From: Nannocystis sp. RBIL2
GTDB taxonomy: Bacteria; Myxococcota_A; Polyangia; Nannocystales; Nannocystaceae
Reading direction: 5' to 3'
DNA length: 64,000 bases
Assembly (NCBI RefSeq): GCF_026626745.1
Contig: NZ_JAPNJW010000002.1
Coordinates: 1,190,151 to 1,254,150 of the forward strand
Shown here: positions 11,101 through 58,121 of the stretch, piece by piece
Position numbering within the stretch: position 1 is the stretch's first letter
How the letters are laid out: the number at the start of each line of letters is the position of its first letter
Notes under the pieces: model-generated
What the model saw: only the letters and a program-made list of their open reading frames with translations
The model's database searches: none
Told to the model about the DNA's origin: nothing
Made by a program: the position numbers and the translations under genes

Positions 11101-12120
11101 ATGCCTCCCGTGCGCGACCCGCGGGTGCTCACGGCTGGCCTGGCGGCCGCTCTCGCCTGCGGGGAGCCGGCGCCCGCTGCTGCGCCCGAGGAGGACGCGC
11201 CCGCACCGACCTCGCGCCCCGCCCCGCGCCCACTCGTCCACCTCGATCCGCTCGGCCCCCGCGACCTCGACCCCGCGCGCGGGTCCTCGCCTCGCCTCAC
11301 CGTCCACCTCGAGCCGGTCGACGCCCGCGACCTCGACCTCCTGGCGCGCTGGCCCTCGCTCGCGCACTACCCCCGTGTCCCGCAGGTGCTCGCCGCCGGC
11401 CTGCGCGCGCGCGACCCCGCCGCGATCTTCCGCGGCATGGAGCTCGCCTTCGAGCCCGATCGCTGGGCCGAGATCGACGCCTGGGAGCGCCTCGGCCACA
11501 TCCGCCTCGGCGATCCCGCCGGCTTCTGCCGCACCGACGCCGGCAGCCCCGTGCGGCTGTCCCCTGGGACATACGACCTCGGCTGCCTCGGCGGCTTCCT
11601 CGAGGGCGTCCGCCTGCTGTGGTTGCCGCGACTCGAGCTCGCGGACCTCGTGCCCTGCGATCCGCCCGCCGGCTTCGAGTCGTGCCAGGACGGCGCCCAC
11701 GCCGGCCGCGCCGCCCTCCTGCAGATAGCGGCGCGCCTGCCCGCCGATGACCTCCCCCACGGCCTCGAGCTGCTCGAGCTGCGCCTCGCCGAGCTCGGCC
11801 CCGACGCCTTGATCGCCGCCCTCGTCCCCGACGCGCTCAACCTCTGCAGCGTCTCGCACCGGGCCCGCGCCCGCGGCGGCGAGCGCATGTACCATCACAT
11901 GATGATCGTCGACCCCGCCCGCGATCGCCTCGGCCGCGTGCGCGTGTTCGACACCACCGGCGCCGCCGGCGTCGCCTGGCGGTCGATGCGACCCGAGCGC
12001 CTGCACGGCTACGCGCGCCGCCTCCTGGCCCTCCACGACACCTTCCGCTACGACCCCGAGTCCGCCCGGCTCACCTGCCTCCCCGTGCGCCCGCCGGACG
12101 GCGAAATCACAGGTCCTTGA
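11101..12120 (+). CDS. hypothetical protein, probable lipoprotein
   Basis: Strong GC3 codon bias in the + frame; N-terminus MPPVRDPRVLTAGLAAALACG; the overlapping minus-strand ORF 11014..12036 is a low-complexity shadow. Confidence 0.55.
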   Translation: MPPVRDPRVLTAGLAAALACGEPAPAAAPEEDAPAPTSRPAPRPLVHLDPLGPRDLDPARGSSPRLTVHLEPVDARDLDLLARWPSLAHYPRVPQVLAAGLRARDPAAIFRGMELAFEPDRWAEIDAWERLGHIRLGDPAGFCRTDAGSPVRLSPGTYDLGCLGGFLEGVRLLWLPRLELADLVPCDPPAGFESCQDGAHAGRAALLQIAARLPADDLPHGLELLELRLAELGPDALIAALVPDALNLCSVSHRARARGGERMYHHMMIVDPARDRLGRVRVFDTTGAAGVAWRSMRPERLHGYARRLLALHDTFRYDPESARLTCLPVRPPDGEITGP

Positions 12121-28423: not shown

Positions 28424-29000
28424 CCTGTCCTCTCGGGCCAGCCTCAGACGCGCGCCCTCAGGACGTCGCCTCACCTGTTCCTGAGGTCCTGTCCTTTCGA
28501 ACAGCCTCTCGCGCGTTCTAGCGACGTCATCTCGCGGAACCCGGAGTCTGCCGACACAGCGCCTGTCCTTTCGACCAGCCTCACGAGCTCTCGAGACCGC
28601 CGAGGTACCGGTCGCATCGCTATCTCACTCGGAGCTCGGACTCTGCCCGGCACCCTTCTGTCCTCTCGACCAGCCTCACGCGCGATCCTCGGACGTCACC
28701 TCACTCGGAACTCGGACTCTGCCCGGCACCCTCCTGTCCTCTCGACCAGCCTCACGCGCGCTCCTCGGACGTCACCTCACTGGGCACTCGGACTCTGCCC
28801 GAAGCACACCTGTCCTTTCGACCATCACGCGCGTGCTGCAGGCGTCATCTCACGCGGAACTCGGAGCCTGCACGTCGAGCTCCTGTCCTTTCGACCAGCC
28901 TCCCGCGCGCGCCCCCGAGATGTCCGCCGCACGCCTGAGCCTGCCTGACGACGTCCTGCCCTTCTCACAGTCTCACGTACGCACCCGCCGGACGTCGCCT
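28424..29000. repeat. degenerate intergenic tandem array, about 8 units of 65-95 nt, each beginning CCTGTCCTYTCGAMCAGCCTC
   Basis: Read directly: units start at about 28424, 28488, 28562, 28657, 28733, 28809, 28883, 28956; units 4 and 5 are about 90% identical; no ORF with coding-like codon usage. Confidence 0.8.
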
Positions 29001-30780: not shown

Positions 30781-30995
30781 CGATATCTGTCCCTCAGGAC
30801 ATCTCGCTGCGGCGTCGGCCCTGCGATGTCAGATGTCCCGAAGGGCATTTCGCTGCGGCGTCAGCCCTGCGATGTCAGATGTCCCGAAGGGCATTTCGCT
30901 GCGGCGTCAGCCATGCCGCTGACGGCCCCACGCGACCTGTCCTTCGAGCCAGCTCGCGGCAGCCGGCCGGCCTGCCGCGAGCTCCTCGACCTGTG
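30755..30995. repeat. 25-bp direct repeat (CCTGCCGCGAGCTCCTCGACCTGTG) flanking a 191-bp insert with an internal 48-bp tandem duplication
   Basis: Copy 1 at 30755-30779 is the last codons of pepF; copy 2 at 30971-30995; the insert carries GGACA/TGTCC palindromes and two copies of CGCTGCGGCGTCAGCCCTGCGATGTCAGATGTCCCGAAGGGCATTT. Confidence 0.8.
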
Positions 30996-45662: not shown

Positions 45663-45985
45663 GCCTCGTGCGGCCCCAAGCGTCGAGGCAACCATCTGCC
45701 TGAGTCTCTTGCGGCCACCCCCGACAATCGGACCTCCGCCTGAGCCGCGAGCTCTCGCGCCGCGAGGCAGCCGTCATCGGACCTTCGCCCGGACCCTCGA
45801 GCTGCCCCTCAGGGCACCGAGGCGGCGCCCGACAATCGGGCCTCAGCCTGAGCCATGAGCTCTCGCCCCGAGGCAGCCGTCATCGGACCTTCGCCCGAAC
45901 CATCGAGCTCCCGCCCCAGGGCACCGCGGCCACCCCCGGACCTCCCCTCAGCCTCGAGCTCCCGCTCCGGACCTGCCTCGTCCTG
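45636..45985. repeat. tandem repeat (about 110 nt x2 plus partial copies) seeded from the 3' end of lspA copy 1
   Basis: CCGACAATCGGACC(G/T)CCGCCTGAGCC occurs at 45643 (last codons of lspA), 45722 and 45836; full units 45717-45828 and 45829-45934. Confidence 0.8.
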
Positions 45986-52109: not shown

Positions 52110-52393
52110 GATATGCCAGGTTCACACCGTTCTTTTCACTGGACGCGCCTTACCCGGCTGCTATCTACTTTGCCCGACAGGCGGGCAAACCCGCTCGTCC
52201 GGGGTGGCTACAATCGTAGCCACTCGCAGTAGCCCCCTGACTGCTGGCCTCGCGATGGCCGGCAAGTGGCCGACCGGTGTCCGGGCGGCCGTCCGATACC
52301 GACCCCCTTGGCTTGTCGCTGCTTCTTCGCCCTTTCCGCCGCGCCATCCACCGGCGGCGCCGTCACCTGCAGGATTGCCCCGATCGGCCCCCT

Positions 52394-52412
52394 GGGCCTT
52401 TTTTCCGCTTAA
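52394..52412 (+). terminator. possible intrinsic terminator (GGCCC-cct-GGGCC + T6)
   Basis: GC stem followed by TTTTTT at 52407-52412, about 290 nt downstream of the lipoprotein gene and 160 nt upstream of cdnL. Confidence 0.35.
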
Positions 52413-52571
52413 GGAGCACCCTGCGCCGACGCGCCGAGCCCGACTGCACCGGGCCCAACTGTCCCGAACTACTTTGAAGGTGGGGGATTTCGTCCCCACG
52501 ACGCCCGTCGACGAGTCGGCGGCACAAGAGGTGCAGAGGGGCGCGCGCAAACGCCTGGAGACGAACTGCCG

Positions 52572-53063
52572 ATGCAACCCCGATTCAACGTTGGTGAGAA
52601 GGCCGTTTACCCGACTCACGGTGTCGCCGAGGTCATGGCCCTCGAGACGAAAATCATCGAGTCGCGCCCCTTCCAGTTCTATCACCTGCGCGTCTTCGGC
52701 TCCGGCCTGAAGATCATCGTGCCGGTGGCCAAGGCCGAAGAGAACGGCATGCGTCCCCTCGCCGACGGCGAGATGATCGACGAGCTCTACGATCTGCTGC
52801 GCGACCACGAGGTCCCGTGCGATCGCCAGACCTGGAACCGGCGTTACCGCGGCTTCATGGAGAAGATCCGCACGGGTTCGCTGTTCGAGGTCGGCGAGGT
52901 GTACCGCGATCTGAGCCTCCTCAAGCACACCAAGAATCTTTCGCACGGCGAGCGGCAGATGCTGCAGACCGCCCGGAACCTGGTCATTCGCGAGCTCTCG
53001 ACCGTCCGCAACGAGCCCGAGTCCGCGATCGCCGCTGAGCTGGACTCGATGCTGCAGGCTTGA
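52572..53063 (+). CDS. cdnL: CarD-family transcription regulator CdnL
   Basis: FNVGEKAVYPTHGVAEVMALE...TWNRRYRGFMEKIRTGSLFEVGEVYRDLSLLK... aligns closely with Myxococcus xanthus CdnL. Confidence 0.9.
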   Translation: MQPRFNVGEKAVYPTHGVAEVMALETKIIESRPFQFYHLRVFGSGLKIIVPVAKAEENGMRPLADGEMIDELYDLLRDHEVPCDRQTWNRRYRGFMEKIRTGSLFEVGEVYRDLSLLKHTKNLSHGERQMLQTARNLVIRELSTVRNEPESAIAAELDSMLQA

Positions 53064-53076
53064 GTAAGGTCCGCGC

Positions 53077-53604
53077 GTGGCCACCGACATCAATGAGTCC
53101 GTCGAGATCCAGATCTCGACCTTGCCCTGGGAGCAGATCGCGGTCGACGCCTTCGTCTGTCCGACCAACTCCGAGGGCGTGATGAGTCACTTCCCGGCCA
53201 ACAAGATCCGCGACCTGGCCGGCCGCGAGATCGAGGCGATGGTGAAGGAGCACACCCCGCTGGCGATCGGCGCCGCGTTCGTGACGCCCGCGGGCAAGAT
53301 GAAGGCGAAGTACCTCATCCACGTGCCCAACACCGATCGCCCCGGCGGTCGCGTCCAGGTCGAGGACGTCCTGCGCGCCACCGCGGCGGTGCTGGTGGCC
53401 TGCAAGGTCAAGGGCTTCACGAGCGTCGCCGTCCCGTTGATGGGTGCGTTCGAGCTCGGGATCCCTGCCGAGGAAGCCGCTCGCGCGATCCACAGCGAGC
53501 TCAAGGTCTACCGCGGCGAGCGCCCGCTCCGCGCCTTCCTCATGGCCAAGGACGCCGACGACGTCGAGGTGTTCGAGTTGGCCATGGAAGGGAACATCCC
53601 GTAG
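53077..53604 (+). CDS. macro-domain protein (ADP-ribose/O-acetyl-ADP-ribose processing family)
   Basis: GTG start; IAVDAFVCPTNSEG...YLIHVPNTDRPGG...VAVPLMGAFELGIP macro-domain pattern. Confidence 0.75.
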   Translation: MATDINESVEIQISTLPWEQIAVDAFVCPTNSEGVMSHFPANKIRDLAGREIEAMVKEHTPLAIGAAFVTPAGKMKAKYLIHVPNTDRPGGRVQVEDVLRATAAVLVACKVKGFTSVAVPLMGAFELGIPAEEAARAIHSELKVYRGERPLRAFLMAKDADDVEVFELAMEGNIP

Positions 53605-53952
53605 ATGAGCCCCCTGCTCGACTACCTGCCTCTCGTCGCAGCCGTCGGGCTCATCGGGGTCCTCGCCGGCCTGGTCCGCGCGCGTGCGAGGCAGCAGGCC
53701 GCGCCCGACGCCGGCGAGAGCCTGGTTCAGCTGCGCCCGCGTCAGCCCGTCGACACCGGCGGCCTCCTCGCGCTGGCCGGCCTCGGCTTCGCGCTCGCGC
53801 TGGCCCTGGTCCTGTTCGCGCCGACCGCCGCGGTCTGCCTGTCCAGCACGACATGTCCGGAAGGACCTGCCCTTTGGGTCAGCGCCGCCGGCCTGGGTCT
53901 GCTGGGTCTGGCGACCGCGATCGCGTGGCCCTCGCTGACCCGCGCGCCATGA
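53605..53952 (+). CDS. small membrane protein
   Basis: ATG directly after the macro-gene stop; three hydrophobic segments; contains an in-frame GGACATGTCC-type element (STTCPEGPALW). Confidence 0.45.
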   Translation: MSPLLDYLPLVAAVGLIGVLAGLVRARARQQAAPDAGESLVQLRPRQPVDTGGLLALAGLGFALALALVLFAPTAAVCLSSTTCPEGPALWVSAAGLGLLGLATAIAWPSLTRAP

Positions 53953-56105
53953 TCCGCCCGCGCGCCGCCGCCTCGCCTGCGCCCGCGTCGGCGAGCGGCG
54001 TCGTCGCGCTGGGTGTCTCGGCGAGTAACCTGGCCCAAAGCGCCTGCGACGGCCCGGCGCTGGACGTCGTGTCGCGCGAGCTGGCGTCGCCGCTTCGCGG
54101 CTTCAGGGTCCGTGCGAGCTCCTCGCTCGAGCTCGCGGGGCAGGACTTCCCGCTGCACCCGCCCGCTTCGGCCATGCCAGGCGTCGACGAGATGTCTGCG
54201 AGCTCCTCGCTCGCGGTCGTCTCGCCGCCTCTACTTCTTCGCGGCTTCGAAGCAAGCACTTGCACTGGGCTTGAGGTCGCGTCGCTGCGCTCGTCCGCTT
54301 CGGTCGACGAGACGCCGACGAGTTCGCCGCGCGAGGCCGCGTCGCCGCTTCCACTTCTCTGCCGCTTCGAAGCAAGCGCGAGCACTCGGCTCGAGGTCGC
54401 GTCGCTGCGGTCGACCGCCTCGGTCATGCAAGTTGTCGGCGAGACGCTGGCGAGCTCCTCGCGCGAGGCCGCGTCACCGCTTCCACTTCCTCGCGACTTC
54501 GAGGCAAGCGCGAGCACCCGGCCCGAGGTCGCGTCGCCGCTTCCGCCCGCTTCGGTCATGCGTGGTGTCGACGAGACGCTGGCGAGCTCCTCGCCCGAGG
54601 CCGCGTCACCGCTTCCACTTCCTCGCGACTTCGAGGCAAGCGCGAGCACCCGGCCCGAGGTCGCGTCGCCGCTTCCGCCCGCTTCGGTCATGCGTGGTGT
54701 CGACGAGACGCCGGTGAGCTCCGCGCCCGAGATCGCATCGCCGCTTCTTCGCAATTTCGACGCGAGCGCGAGCTCCTCGCCCGAGTCCCTGTCGCAGGAC
54801 GTCGCCCTGCGGCTGTCCACTTCGGTCGTCTCGCCGCTCCCACTCGCCCGCGTCGCGCACGCGAGCTCGCCGCTCCCTCGTCGCAACTTCCTCCGCGCCG
54901 CGCTCTCGCCCGCAGCGCCTTGCGTCCTCTTCTTCGCGCTCGGGCTCGGCTGCGGGGCCCCTCCGACGGGAGTGCGCGCCGAACCGGGGACGCTGGTGTT
55001 CACGCCGGCGGCGCAGCGTCTCGAGCTGCGACTCGTGAATCACGGCGCGGCGCCCGTCCCGTTGACGCGGATCCGCTTCGACACCCGCACCCCCGACTGG
55101 GGCGCCTTCTCGATCGAGAACCGCGAGTACCCGCGGGAGATCGCTGCTGGCGGAGCCGTGAGCCTGCGCCTCCGCGTCGACCGCGACCACTTCGATCGCA
55201 CCGGCGCCTCCGGCTCCGGCAGCGCGCGCCTCCTCTTCGCGGCGGGAGAGGCGCCCCAGATCGTCGAGCTCCGCTGGGAGCCACCCGATCTCGCGAGCGA
55301 TCTGCGGCGCACGGCGATCCGCACCGCCCTGGCGCTCGCGCTCGTCGCGCTGGCGTGGATCTCGACGCGCCGCACCCGGCTGAACTGGACCGCCTGGCTG
55401 CCGGTGGTGGCCGTCCTGGCGCTGTTCCCGTTCGGTCCGGGCCTGTGCTTCGACGGCCTCGGCAGCAGCCTTTCCGCCGCGGACGTCGAGCAGTGCGCCG
55501 CGGGACGGGGAGGTGCTTCGCTGTCGCTGATCGCCGTCGGCGAAGGCTGGCTCGTCTATCTCGTCGCCCTCGTGCTCGCCGGTCTCGGTCGCCTCGTCGA
55601 CCGGGCTGCGCTGGCCCGCCGCCTGGCGTCGCGCGACCTCGCCCTCGCCGCCGCATTCGCCGGCCCTTTGCTGGCCTTTGGCACCCTCGATCCACGGCAG
55701 CTCGTGGGGGAGCAAGCAGCGGGGCTCGTCGGCGGTGCTGCGATCCCCCCCGCCTGGGGAATCTTCGTGCAACCGATCGCCGCTGCCGTCGCCCTCGCGG
55801 TCGCGGCCGCGCCGCCGGCAGGACGGCTCGAGCGGCTCGTCTTCGCGGCGGCGTTCGTCGCCTGTTTCCTCGGCGGTGGTGTGCCCGCGACGGTACTCGC
55901 CGGCAGCGGCCACGGCCTCGTGCTGTTCATCGGCGCAGTCGTGGCGGCGGCGAAGATCGCTGCGGTCGTGTGGTTCGTGCAGCGGCTGCACGCGTCGGCC
56001 ACCGGCTCGCGTGCGCGCGCCGCTCTCTTCTTTCTCGAGCGGGCCGCGATGCCCCTGGCGATCGCCAATCTGCTGGCGACGTCGGTCTACGCCCTGCTGT
56101 GGTGA
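53949..56105 (+). CDS. repeat-containing protein with Tat/lipobox-like internal signal and a multi-TM C-terminal domain (start uncertain)
   Basis: ATGA overlap with the upstream gene; frame open through the 120-bp repeat array; PRRNFLRAALSPAAPCVLFFALGLGC looks like a twin-arginine lipoprotein signal; C-terminal 300 aa has at least 6 hydrophobic helices; the true start may lie downstream of the repeats. Confidence 0.45.
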   Translation: MIRPRAAASPAPASASGVVALGVSASNLAQSACDGPALDVVSRELASPLRGFRVRASSSLELAGQDFPLHPPASAMPGVDEMSASSSLAVVSPPLLLRGFEASTCTGLEVASLRSSASVDETPTSSPREAASPLPLLCRFEASASTRLEVASLRSTASVMQVVGETLASSSREAASPLPLPRDFEASASTRPEVASPLPPASVMRGVDETLASSSPEAASPLPLPRDFEASASTRPEVASPLPPASVMRGVDETPVSSAPEIASPLLRNFDASASSSPESLSQDVALRLSTSVVSPLPLARVAHASSPLPRRNFLRAALSPAAPCVLFFALGLGCGAPPTGVRAEPGTLVFTPAAQRLELRLVNHGAAPVPLTRIRFDTRTPDWGAFSIENREYPREIAAGGAVSLRLRVDRDHFDRTGASGSGSARLLFAAGEAPQIVELRWEPPDLASDLRRTAIRTALALALVALAWISTRRTRLNWTAWLPVVAVLALFPFGPGLCFDGLGSSLSAADVEQCAAGRGGASLSLIAVGEGWLVYLVALVLAGLGRLVDRAALARRLASRDLALAAAFAGPLLAFGTLDPRQLVGEQAAGLVGGAAIPPAWGIFVQPIAAAVALAVAAAPPAGRLERLVFAAAFVACFLGGGVPATVLAGSGHGLVLFIGAVVAAAKIAAVVWFVQRLHASATGSRARAALFFLERAAMPLAIANLLATSVYALLW
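54060..54900. repeat. tandem array of about 7 units of about 120 nt (two adjacent near-identical copies at about 54453-54572 and 54573-54692)
   Basis: Unit GAGACGCTGGCGAGCTCCTCGCNCGAGGCCGCGTCACCGCTTCCACTTCCTCGCGACTTCGAGGCAAGCGCGAGCACCCGGCCCGAGGTCGCGTCGCCGCTTCCGCCCGCTTCGGTCATGCGTGGTGTCGAC; all six frames stay open across it. Confidence 0.85.
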
Positions 56106-56490
56106 CGCGGGATGCGAGCAGGGCCGGGCGGCCAGGTCCCGAGAGACGGGTGCGGCGCTGCGCACTCAGCGCGCAGCGTGTCCGGTGTCTCCAACGTAGC
56201 TTTTTTCCGAAGCTGGTGTTAGCGTGGCCGGCGAAAAGCCTTGACCGCAGGCTTGCCCGGCGAGCGCGGATGCTAGTTCGGACGCCAAACCTCGTAATCC
56301 GAGTGAGACGGGACACACGCGACGCCGTTACGGCCCCACGGACCTGGGCTGAGATGGCGTCGCCGCAGGCTCGCGTGAAGAACCTGTCCCAAAGATATGA
56401 GCAGGCGCGGTATTGTACCCAGACCAACATCGGTGGGAGCTGCCCCTCCGATCGCGGTCGCGGCCCACGTGGGCCACGGGGAGGCGAATA

Positions 56491-57420
56491 ATGGCAACCA
56501 CGATCGCCCAGATCGGTGGATTTGAACTTTGGGACATCCTGCAACTTGCGCAGACATCGCGCATGTCGATCAAGCTGTCCGTCGAGTCGCCGCATGGCGT
56601 CGGCGCGATGTTTTTCCAGGGCGGCAACCTCGTCCACGCCGAGACCGGCGCGGCCCAGGGTGACGACGCCGTCAACACGATCCTCGACTGGCGCGAGGGC
56701 AGCGTCTCGTCTTCGCAGTTGCCCGAGAACTGCCCGCAGACGGTACGACACACCTCGATCGTCGCGTTGTTGATGGACCGAGCTCGTCAGCGCGACGAGG
56801 CTTCGCGCAACGAGCCGCCGCCACGCAGCGAGCCGCCGCGTAGCGAGCCACCGCCGCGAAGCGAGCCACCGCCACGCGCCGCGACGCCGCCCTCCCCTCC
56901 GCCGGTGCCGGTGATCGAGAAGCCGCAGCGAGCTGCGCCGGTCACCGTCCCGCCACTTCCGCCGCTGCCCGTCTCTACACCGACGCCGGCCTACGCGGCC
57001 GCCCCCAACGTTGCAGCGCGCGACAAGGAGCTGTCAGACATGGACCTCAAGGTCGTGAAGGCCATCCTCGAGGAGCTCGACGACCACCTCATGGGCGGCC
57101 TCATCAGCGTCGACATCATCAGCAAAGCCTCGGGCATGTCGCTCGCGGGCATCAACTCGGCGCCGAAGGCGTGCGCCATGTTCAACCGCCTCTCCGAGCA
57201 GCTGCACAACGCGCTGACCCGCTCGGAGGATGCCCTCGCCAAGGGCATCAACAAGTTCATCATCGAAGGCGACAATGGCCTCCTGATCTTCGTCATCGAG
57301 CTCGACGACCGTCACCGCTGGGCGATCCTCGTCGACGGCGTCAAGGCGCAGCTCGGGTGGGTGTTCGTCATCATCCCCGAGCTCCAGCCGCGCCTGATCG
57401 CCGCGCTGAAGGGTCGCTGA
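56491..57420 (+). CDS. DUF4388-domain protein fused to a Roadblock/LC7 (MglB-like) domain via a Pro-rich linker
   Basis: ORF 56413..57420, Met MATTIAQIGG at 56491 after GGGGAGG; N-terminal DUF4388-like IGGFELWDILQLAQTSRMSIKL; PPRSEPP repeats; C-terminal roadblock-like segment GLLIFVIELDDRHRWAILVD. Confidence 0.65.
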   Translation: MATTIAQIGGFELWDILQLAQTSRMSIKLSVESPHGVGAMFFQGGNLVHAETGAAQGDDAVNTILDWREGSVSSSQLPENCPQTVRHTSIVALLMDRARQRDEASRNEPPPRSEPPRSEPPPRSEPPPRAATPPSPPPVPVIEKPQRAAPVTVPPLPPLPVSTPTPAYAAAPNVAARDKELSDMDLKVVKAILEELDDHLMGGLISVDIISKASGMSLAGINSAPKACAMFNRLSEQLHNALTRSEDALAKGINKFIIEGDNGLLIFVIELDDRHRWAILVDGVKAQLGWVFVIIPELQPRLIAALKGR

Positions 57421-57426
57421 GTCGGC

Positions 57427-57465
57427 TGTCCTGAGGGACATGTCCTCACGGGCATGTCCCTCGGC
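57427..57465. repeat. GGACATGYCC-family element
   Basis: CTGTCCtgaGGGACATGTCCtcacGGGCATGTCCC downstream of the DUF4388 gene. Confidence 0.75.
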
Positions 57466-57515
57466 ACCTGCTCCCGAGCACCTGGCCGAACAAACCTGGC
57501 CGATCGGACAGCCCC

Positions 57516-58121
57516 GTGGTCTACATCAGCAAGGTCTACACGAAGTTCGGCGACCGCGGCGACACGATGCTCGCCAGTGGCGACACCGTCGGCAAGGACG
57601 CCCCGCGGGTCGCCGCCTACGGCGAGGTCGACGAGCTCAACGCGGTGCTCGGCGTGCTGCGCGTCGAGCTCTCCCGCATCGGCGAGCCCGGCGAGCGCCG
57701 CGAGTTCCTGGCCGCGCTCGACGCCTCGCTCGCGCGGATCCAGCAAGAGCTGTTCGACCTCGGGGCCGAGCTGGCGACGCCCGGCGCGACCGAAGGCAAG
57801 GCGCCGCTCAAGGTCGAGGAGGCCGACGTCACGCGCCTCGAGCACGAGCTCGACGCATGGAACGCCGACCTGCCGCCGCTGCGCAGCTTCATCCTGCCGG
57901 GCGGCGGGCCGCTCGGTGCGTGGGCCCACCTCGCACGCACCGTGTGCCGCCGCGCCGAGCGCAGCGTCGTCGCGCTCGCCCGCGTCGAGCCGGTCCGCGG
58001 CGAGGCCGTCCGCTACATCAACCGCCTGAGCGACTGGTTCTTCGTCGTCGCCCGCGCCGCGGCCCATGCCTTCGCCGTCCCCGAGGTGCTGTGGGATACC
58101 CACCGGAAGCCCGCCCCGTGA
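57516..58121 (+). CDS. PduO-type ATP:cob(I)alamin adenosyltransferase
   Basis: GTG start; IYTKxGDxGxT pattern (VYTKFGDRGDTML), then RVAAYGEVDELNAVLG. Confidence 0.8.
   Translation: MVYISKVYTKFGDRGDTMLASGDTVGKDAPRVAAYGEVDELNAVLGVLRVELSRIGEPGERREFLAALDASLARIQQELFDLGAELATPGATEGKAPLKVEEADVTRLEHELDAWNADLPPLRSFILPGGGPLGAWAHLARTVCRRAERSVVALARVEPVRGEAVRYINRLSDWFFVVARAAAHAFAVPEVLWDTHRKPAP

Follow-up and report, generated by a model that had tools for sequence, protein, structure and literature searches.

An in-frame minisatellite, probably translated, ahead of a lipoprotein signal core in Nannocystis

Introduction

Coding minisatellites, or variable number tandem repeats (VNTRs), are a known kind of feature in bacterial envelope proteins. 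The repeats of mycoplasma Vlp lipoproteins and of Gram-positive surface proteins are found in the mature part of the protein, which is exposed, and a change in their length alters the surface. Here we describe a tandem array in a 64,000-nt stretch of the Nannocystis sp. RBIL2 genome (contig NZ_JAPNJW010000002.1, positions 1,190,151 to 1,254,150; hereafter the window, with a G+C content of 71.6%). The array occupies the 5' part of an open reading frame (ORF; 53949-56105, plus strand) for a 718-residue protein that is composed of a long N-terminal extension, a lipoprotein signal, and PapD-like and NuoH-like domains. Like the described coding VNTRs, it has a unit length that is a multiple of 3, a copy number that varies between close strains, near-identical adjacent units that point to recent slippage or recombination, and a low-complexity composition. 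Unlike them, it precedes the hydrophobic core and the lipobox of the signal and evolves near-neutrally, and this position ahead of a lipoprotein signal core is unusual.

The second system to be compared is the lipoprotein signal peptide that is processed by Lgt and Lsp. Its lipobox is described by PROSITE PS51257 as {DERK}(6)-[LIVMFWSTAG](2)-[LIVMFYSTAGCQ]-[AGS]-C, with the Cys about 15-35 residues from the N-terminus. The Nannocystis protein resembles such signals in that the lipobox and its invariant Cys are found in all 15 loci compared below, and in the Arg residues that stand before an 18-residue hydrophobic region (h-region). It differs in that the Cys of the window protein is residue 335, and not 15-35, when counted from the only conserved start.

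A third system is the region known as ESPR (extended signal peptide region) in autotransporters and in two-partner secretion proteins, which is likewise an N-terminal extension ahead of a normal signal and places the targeting signal off the extreme N-terminus (PMC2805444). The ESPR-type extension adds about 25 residues, and the whole signal sequence then exceeds 40-50 residues (PMC2805444). In contrast, the Nannocystis extension has about 310 residues (ten times longer), is repetitive, is unconserved between species and stands on a signal peptidase II (SPII) signal. The Pfam scan of the 718-residue protein at E<=0.01 gave PF00146 as its sole match and no ESPR family, so that the protein does not belong to the ESPR proteins by this measure. 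Our literature search for long lipoprotein signal peptides, for repeats in the n-region and for the Nannocystis locus found no precedent, the autotransporter ESPR being the only related case.

Conserved gene start and reading frame

We propose, with a probability of roughly 0.8, that ribosomes translate the array, which would be an in-frame minisatellite within the n-region of the signal peptide of a conserved lipoprotein of the Sec type (signal peptidase II). This proposal draws on the comparison of 15 loci, namely the window and 14 related loci (L001-L005 and L013-L021) from five Nannocystis species genomes and nine further assemblies or metagenome contigs. One of them, L013, contains 1-nt indels and was set apart from the 14 clean loci. 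The gene order CarD, Macro, 115-residue membrane protein, long ORF, PatA_N/DUF4388 and PduO is common to the 15 loci.

In every locus, the upstream gene for the small membrane protein (53605-53952, plus strand, in the window) ends with CCA TGA, and the ATG across the Pro and stop codons is codon 1 of the long ORF. The resulting 4-nt ATGA overlap (53949-53952, plus strand; CC-ATGA in 15/15 loci) is the classic arrangement for translational coupling. CCA accounts for 3.5% of the Pro codons in the window genes, and that so rare a codon is invariant here indicates selection for the ATG. From this ATG to the lipobox Cys, the frame is kept in phase and free of stops in 14/14 clean loci. The distance is 20, 28 and 35 residues in the three most distant loci (L018-L020), where the segment is therefore an ordinary lipoprotein signal peptide with its Cys at residues 21-36, within the usual range. 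In the other clean loci, it is 64, 67, 87, 105, 117, 118, 184, 204, 220, 244 and 334 residues, the last and largest being that of the window. When the N-regions of the 14 loci are summed, the 1827 codons of the sense frame contain 0 stops, and the other five frames have 27, 8, 12, 7 and 16. Moreover, aligning the window DNA with L002, L014 and L015 opens 13 gaps of 3 to 327 nt, every one a multiple of 3. The frame is thus preserved despite the changes in length, with L013 as the exception. G+C is also maximal at codon position 3 (GC3) of the ORF frame in 6/6 genomes analysed.

Usable internal starts are few. The window has no in-frame ATG, GTG or TTG less than 79 codons from the lipobox Cys, the nearest ones lying 79 and 87 codons upstream, and no Shine-Dalgarno-like core was found ahead of its internal starts. 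Seven of the ten extended relatives have no start within 15-45 codons of the Cys, which is the normal range of signal peptides. L015 has no canonical internal start, L005 and L017 have one that is merely 6-7 codons before the Cys, and the nearest internal start of L014, L016, L021 and the window is at least 52-79 codons away from it. The conserved ATGA start, the kept phase, the in-frame gaps and the scarcity of usable internal starts make the long-protein model, with the ATG at 53949 as the fixed gene start, well supported as far as sequence comparison can tell. Of the two models in the initial annotation of this DNA, the long protein with a variable repeat N-region agrees with these data, whereas the repeats as 5' leader DNA of a short twin-arginine translocation (Tat) lipoprotein do not, for lack of an in-frame start within 79 codons of the Cys. 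Orthologues without repeats that keep an RR-lipobox start had been named as support for the short model; repeats are indeed lacking in the distant orthologues, whose start is nevertheless the ATG of the overlap and not an internal one.

The signal-peptide core of the window protein (54876-54953, plus strand) consists of PRRNFLR, the h-region AALSPAAPCVLFFALGLG and the lipobox Cys335 (codon 54951-54953). PRRNFLR is the positively charged, Tat-like end of the n-region; after RRNFLR come 18 residues without charge, and the hydrophobic peak is at residues 314-337 with a Kyte-Doolittle maximum of 1.8. The lipobox pattern matches in 15/15 loci, and its Cys is invariant in two alignments of 20 and 27 homologues.

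The public Nannocystis annotations place the start of this gene at five different internal positions, with products of 393-544 aa (P0004/L004, P0005/L001, P0006/L003, P0008/L002 and P0009/L005). The annotated radixulma product begins 6 residues before the lipobox Cys, too few to form a signal peptide. Behind these five differing starts, the comparative data indicate a single conserved, coupled one.

Structure of the array

The array in the 5' part of the ORF is a real, non-random tandem repeat. It had been noticed at the outset, and Tandem Repeats Finder (TRF) reports a dominant array at 54303-54747 with a period of 132, 3.4 copies, 89% matches, 0 indels and a score of 664. The period of 120 nt that had been proposed was not reproduced: in the self-comparison of 54040-54900, self-identity peaks at offset 132 (0.56), with a second peak at 264, and offsets of about 120 are unremarkable. 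The unit of 132 nt corresponds to 44 codons and, being a multiple of 3 inside ORF 53949-56105, is that of a coding tandem repeat. TRF also detects nested 60- and 72-nt periodicities, so that each 132-nt unit falls into two halves, of about 60 and 72 nt, that are related to each other, and the window unit is shown, on the evidence of this repeat pattern, to have arisen from a 60/72-nt half-unit.

About five units are recognised by blastn (54180-54305, 54303-54428, 54434-54560, 54561-54692 and 54693-54785, with 78, 83, 98.4, 100 and 79% identity to unit 4), together with a weaker stretch at 54050-54141, instead of the seven or so counted before. In codon register on the plus strand, the units span 54177-54824 with spacings of 120, 132 and 132, unit 1 alone being 120 nt long. 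Unit 1 (54177-54296, 40 codons) shows about 78% identity to the reference unit 4, and unit 2 (54297-54428, 132 nt or 44 codons) about 83%. Unit 3 (54429-54560, 132 nt) has 5 differences from unit 4, all in its first 36 nt, and the two form the youngest duplication (unit 4, 54561-54692, 132 nt). Unit 5 (54693-54824) is a degenerate last copy with about 79% identity over its first 93 nt. The stretch at 54050-54141 (plus strand) is related to the repeat but old and degenerate, with 60-65% identity to the unit references. At offset 132, identity is unbroken over at most 116 nt (54464-54579 = 54596-54711), and both copies together span 54464-54711 of the plus strand in the self-comparison. Near-identical adjacent units had been reported in the initial annotation, and this holds for 54453-54572 against 54585-54704 (1 mismatch), but not for the second block at 54573-54692, which mismatches the first at 90/120 positions. 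The 44-residue repeat peptide quoted there is correct. Two units searched by blastn against the whole 64-kb window matched the array alone, that is, no dispersed copies or mobile element were found there.

Over 54060-54900, two of the six frames are free of stops, namely the ORF frame and one antisense frame, and the remaining four have 1-4 stops each. The two stop-bearing frames of the minus strand have one stop per unit (54424/54556/54688 and 54474/54606). Mononucleotide shuffling of the 999-nt region gave a mean of 4.5 stops per frame and a probability of 0.0085 for none, so that the openness exceeds what chance would give. All six frames had been described as open, and the statement that the frame gives no evidence about coding falls with this count, on which it rested. 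An antisense gene was rejected: the stop-free antisense frame of the window has stops in L001 and L004, and every antisense frame has 7-16 stops in total over the 14 loci.

Turnover among relatives

The short homologues retain both flanks of the extra DNA. The sequence 'M..ARP..VVASSP|RRVARP-h-region' of L018 resembles 'MIRPRAAASPAPASAS ... AHASSPLP|RRNFLR-h-region' of the window, and thus the extra DNA lies inside the n-region of the signal peptide. The first 17 codons MIRPRAAASPAPASASG (53949-53999, plus strand) are conserved and near-identical in L001-L004 and L013-L015, and may be read as a leftover of the ancestral n-region, 5' to the point of insertion. Judged from these comparisons, repeated insertion of DNA and tandem duplication between the first 17 or so codons and the RR/h-region are shown for the Nannocystis lineage.

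Unrelated arrays are found at the same site in N. punicea (102 nt x 3.8), N. bainbridge (27 nt x 6.3), L016 (36 nt) and L017 (51/57 nt), and the N. pusilla group has an array of 132/192 nt. All same-site arrays with scores of at least 100 have periods that are multiples of 3. As an internal control, three other arrays of the window that lie between GC3-supported ORFs (28624-28909, 30788-30916 and 45720-45930) have periods of 76, 46 and 106 nt, none of them divisible by 3.

Within the N. pusilla group, repeat number varies between close relatives, as the comparison suggested in the initial annotation could reveal: about 5 in the window, 4-5 in L013, 3 in L002, 1 in L014 and 0 in L015. The best protein matches are N. 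pusilla proteins with 93% identity. Units 3 and 4 are 98.4% alike, whereas neither exceeds 88.5% identity with a unit of L013, the closest of the genomes that have a full array, and this dates the last duplication or conversion after that split, bearing out the earlier suggestion of a very recent duplication. An exact-match look-up of the CarD protein returned L029, which is the L013 record, together with three short contigs, of which only L030 reaches the array. L030 (1874-2250) is a metagenome contig with 95.8% identity to the window and ends inside the array, probably by an assembly break at the repeats. Its N-region differs from that of the window by in-frame 12-nt indels and many replacements.

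Tentatively, the n-region of this gene may be by far the longest described for a bacterial lipoprotein signal, with about 310 extra residues of lineage-specific repeats, and the site between the coupled start and the signal core may be a genus-wide hot spot for the birth, expansion and contraction of unrelated repeats.

Constraint and mechanism

The ratio of nonsynonymous to synonymous substitution rates (dN/dS) of the N-region is 0.94 against L002 (220 codons), 0.80 against L014 and 0.85 against L004, whereas that of the mature part is 0.23-0.31 in the comparisons undisturbed by frameshifted segments. Differences between units are spread evenly over the codon positions (e.g. 8, 9 and 10). Amino-acid constraint on the extension is thereby shown to be close to nil, to judge from substitution patterns. 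The extension is composed of 19% Ser, 16% Ala, 12% Pro and 11% Leu, has a net charge of -9 and contains no hydrophobic stretch. The AlphaFold (AF2) confidence score (predicted local distance difference test, pLDDT) is 23-38 for residues 1-310 and reaches the mid-40s by residue 320, with a shallow alignment in this part. Neither Pfam nor NCBIfam gave a match in residues 1-310, and the repeat peptide (units 2-5) found nothing at E<=0.01 in 5.8 billion protein clusters.

We consider that units may be gained and lost by replication slippage or unequal recombination, and that selection would act almost solely on the frame and the absence of stops, because ribosomes that begin at the coupled start must cross the array before they arrive at the signal peptide and the conserved mature protein. 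The surviving variants would then be only those that are in frame and stop-free, most lineages being without a usable internal start. Since the array lies ahead of the hydrophobic core and the lipobox, the extension would be cytoplasmic, presumably as a disordered tail rich in Ser, Ala, Pro and Leu, and would probably be removed. If Lgt and Lsp process the lipobox, the tail should leave with the signal peptide and never appear in the mature protein, which would explain the free drift of its sequence. The locus may thus illustrate birth and turnover of in-frame repeats under a constraint on frame alone, in a segment that must be translated and is probably discarded. If the precursor is processed, Sec and Lgt/Lsp would tolerate a tail of more than 300 residues ahead of the signal, a matter of relevance to signal-peptide predictors, in which the signal is taken to be N-terminal, and to start assignment in high-GC genomes.

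Several points weigh against this interpretation. The cleavage of the tail and its role as a neutral passenger are only inferred. A segment of 334 residues before the lipobox is far beyond the usual 15-35, and even from the nearest canonical internal start the Cys would be residue 80 at best. Near-neutral dN/dS and an even spread over codon positions are also expected of non-coding DNA, so that the dN/dS comparison between strains, which had been recommended as a check, separates the N-region (0.80-0.94) from the mature part (0.23-0.31) but leaves the former compatible with non-coding DNA. GC3 in the array is 0.70-0.80, below the 0.85-0.95 of the mature part, and the NCBI annotation of Nannocystis genomes calls shorter products (393-544 aa). 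Finally, L013, the closest full-array relative, has a 1-nt deletion in the array. The same locus also lacks 1 nt in the conserved upstream gene for the 115-residue protein and has a locally frameshifted mature region and a split DUF4388 gene, and for this reason we read the indel in its array as an assembly error. L013/L029 is N. pusilla GCA_049060185.1, with several 1-nt indels within about 4 kb, and the product P0008 of L002 (N. pusilla Na p29) contains a frameshifted-looking stretch in its mature part (...GESSCNP...SCSGCTRRPP...). The frameshifts of L013 and L002 look like assembly errors or pseudogenisation.

Alternative explanations

The translated extension may instead be selected for itself, either as a disordered cytoplasmic domain that stays attached through an uncleaved type II signal-anchor or as a length-tuned regulatory pro-region. 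We doubt this, although it finds support in the persistence of an extension of at least 64 residues, never lost, in all 11 loci with at least 61% identity in the mature part, in the conservation of the first 17 residues, in the Ser/Ala/Pro-rich composition that recurs in many lineages despite differing repeat sequences, and in the repeated, independent birth of arrays at one site. These features have to be set against the dN/dS of 0.8-0.94, the non-homology of the repeat units of different species, the lack of any relative of the repeat peptide in the 5.8 billion clusters and of any confidently predicted structure; moreover, the invariant lipobox Cys argues that cleavage there is the norm of the family. 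If the tail were functional, the number of repeats would heritably tune the biogenesis of an uncharacterised NuoH-like membrane protein, possibly by delayed targeting or through a cytoplasmic peptide released after Lsp cleavage.

It is improbable that the array is an untranslated 5' leader or intergenic DNA and that an internal start (ATG 54690, GTG 54714 or a non-canonical codon near the RR) gives a shorter Tat- or Sec-lipoprotein. A dN/dS of about 1, the position-neutral differences between units and the weaker GC3 contrast in the array would all fit such a protein; every unit contains an in-frame ATG, and gene callers picked internal starts in several Nannocystis genomes. Against it stand the phase and the open frame, kept in 14/14 clean loci over 20-334 residues, the 13/13 gaps that are multiples of 3, the 1827 sense codons with 0 stops where each of the other frames has 7-27, and the ATGA start, kept despite codon bias. 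L005, L015 and L017 have no usable internal start, and the nearest canonical start of the window, besides being without a Shine-Dalgarno-like core, still leaves 79 residues before the Cys and part of the last unit in the protein. No promoter-like site of the sigma-70 kind was found in 52300-56500. Rfam at E<=1 gave no RNA match in 53400-55200 on either strand, and the single terminator-like match, a weak one at 54911, falls within the codons of the h-region.

Tat signals carry an S/T-R-R-x-F-L-K-like motif ahead of a weakly hydrophobic h-region, and polytopic membrane proteins are typically inserted by Sec/YidC. The Tat/lipobox-like signal of the initial annotation stands for its lipobox, which matches in 15/15 loci with the Cys codon at 54951 in the window, and is weak for its twin arginines. 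That RRNFLR sends the N-terminal domain through the twin-arginine pathway has a slim chance: RRNFL fits a TATFIND-like pattern (RR.[FGAVML][LITMVF]) and is followed by 18 uncharged residues, as in L002 and L013, but RRxFL occurs in these 3/15 loci only and is missing from the other 12, including close relatives (RRNIV and RRYIL) and all distant ones, the product is polytopic with about 8 helices, and no cofactor-binding domain is predicted.

Gene product and family

Downstream of the lipobox, a periplasmic beta-sandwich domain (PapD/ASH/MSP-like; residues 342-443, 54972-55277, plus strand) and a polytopic membrane domain with an ND1/NuoH/HycD-like fold (residues 448-718, 55290-56102, plus strand) are predicted. 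The AlphaFold model from residue 310 shows these two domains with a mean pLDDT of 75.5, and the product is thus a predicted polytopic membrane protein of about 8 helices. A small family can be delineated from the C-terminal 411 residues of the ORF; it has 28 matches in a word-indexed search and 60 representatives at E<1e-10 among 1.84 billion in an exhaustive profile search; most of the proteins listed for these 60 representatives start 7-25 residues ahead of the profile match. A metagenome scan with the family profile returned only distant relatives with 27-39% identity, which were not used further, and the profile had no sequence match in the PDB.

Several public annotations name the orthologue 'NADH-quinone oxidoreductase subunit H'. 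The protein shares the membrane-domain fold of NuoH/ND1. It scores 22 bits with PF00146 (NuoH/ND1; cut-off 27 bits), over profile positions 226-297 of 298 only, and 18 bits with the NCBIfam NuoH model (cut-off 305), and by these curated cut-offs it is not a member of the family. With such scores, the name NuoH on some orthologues is unjustified as a statement of membership and is probably an over-annotation. In comparison with NuoH, ND1 and HycD of complex I-like enzymes, only the last 70-90 or so profile positions match, and the window protein is a fusion that adds a lipoprotein signal and a periplasmic PapD-like domain. Among the immediate neighbours, no further nuo gene was identified. The analysis thus defines a small uncharacterised family, now mis-named NuoH, in which PapD-like and NuoH-like (membrane) domains are combined with a lipoprotein signal.

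Neighbouring genes and other repeats

The block of CarD/CdnL-like, Macro, 115-residue, lipoprotein, PatA_N/DUF4388 and PduO-type adenosyltransferase genes extends over 52572-58121 of the window and is strictly kept throughout Nannocystis and in more distant relatives, down to 52% identity. Its last gene (PduO) is absent only from L021, where the contig ends. The 115-residue protein has no Pfam or NCBIfam family and is not on record in an exact-match look-up; it shows 69-98% amino-acid identity across the 14 related loci, and the G+C of its three codon positions is 0.79/0.59/0.87 in the window.

Other in-frame repeats are present in the window. The downstream DUF4388/PatA_N ORF (56413-57420) contains 18/33-nt repeats at 56804-56887, which encode (S)EPPPR units in a Pro-rich linker. 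A repeat of 66 nt x 2.1 lies at 11227-11368 in ORF 11101-12120. This ORF has an ordinary N-terminal lipoprotein-like signal (…LAAALAC|GE), and its repeats follow the signal, which is the usual position, unlike that of the array studied here.

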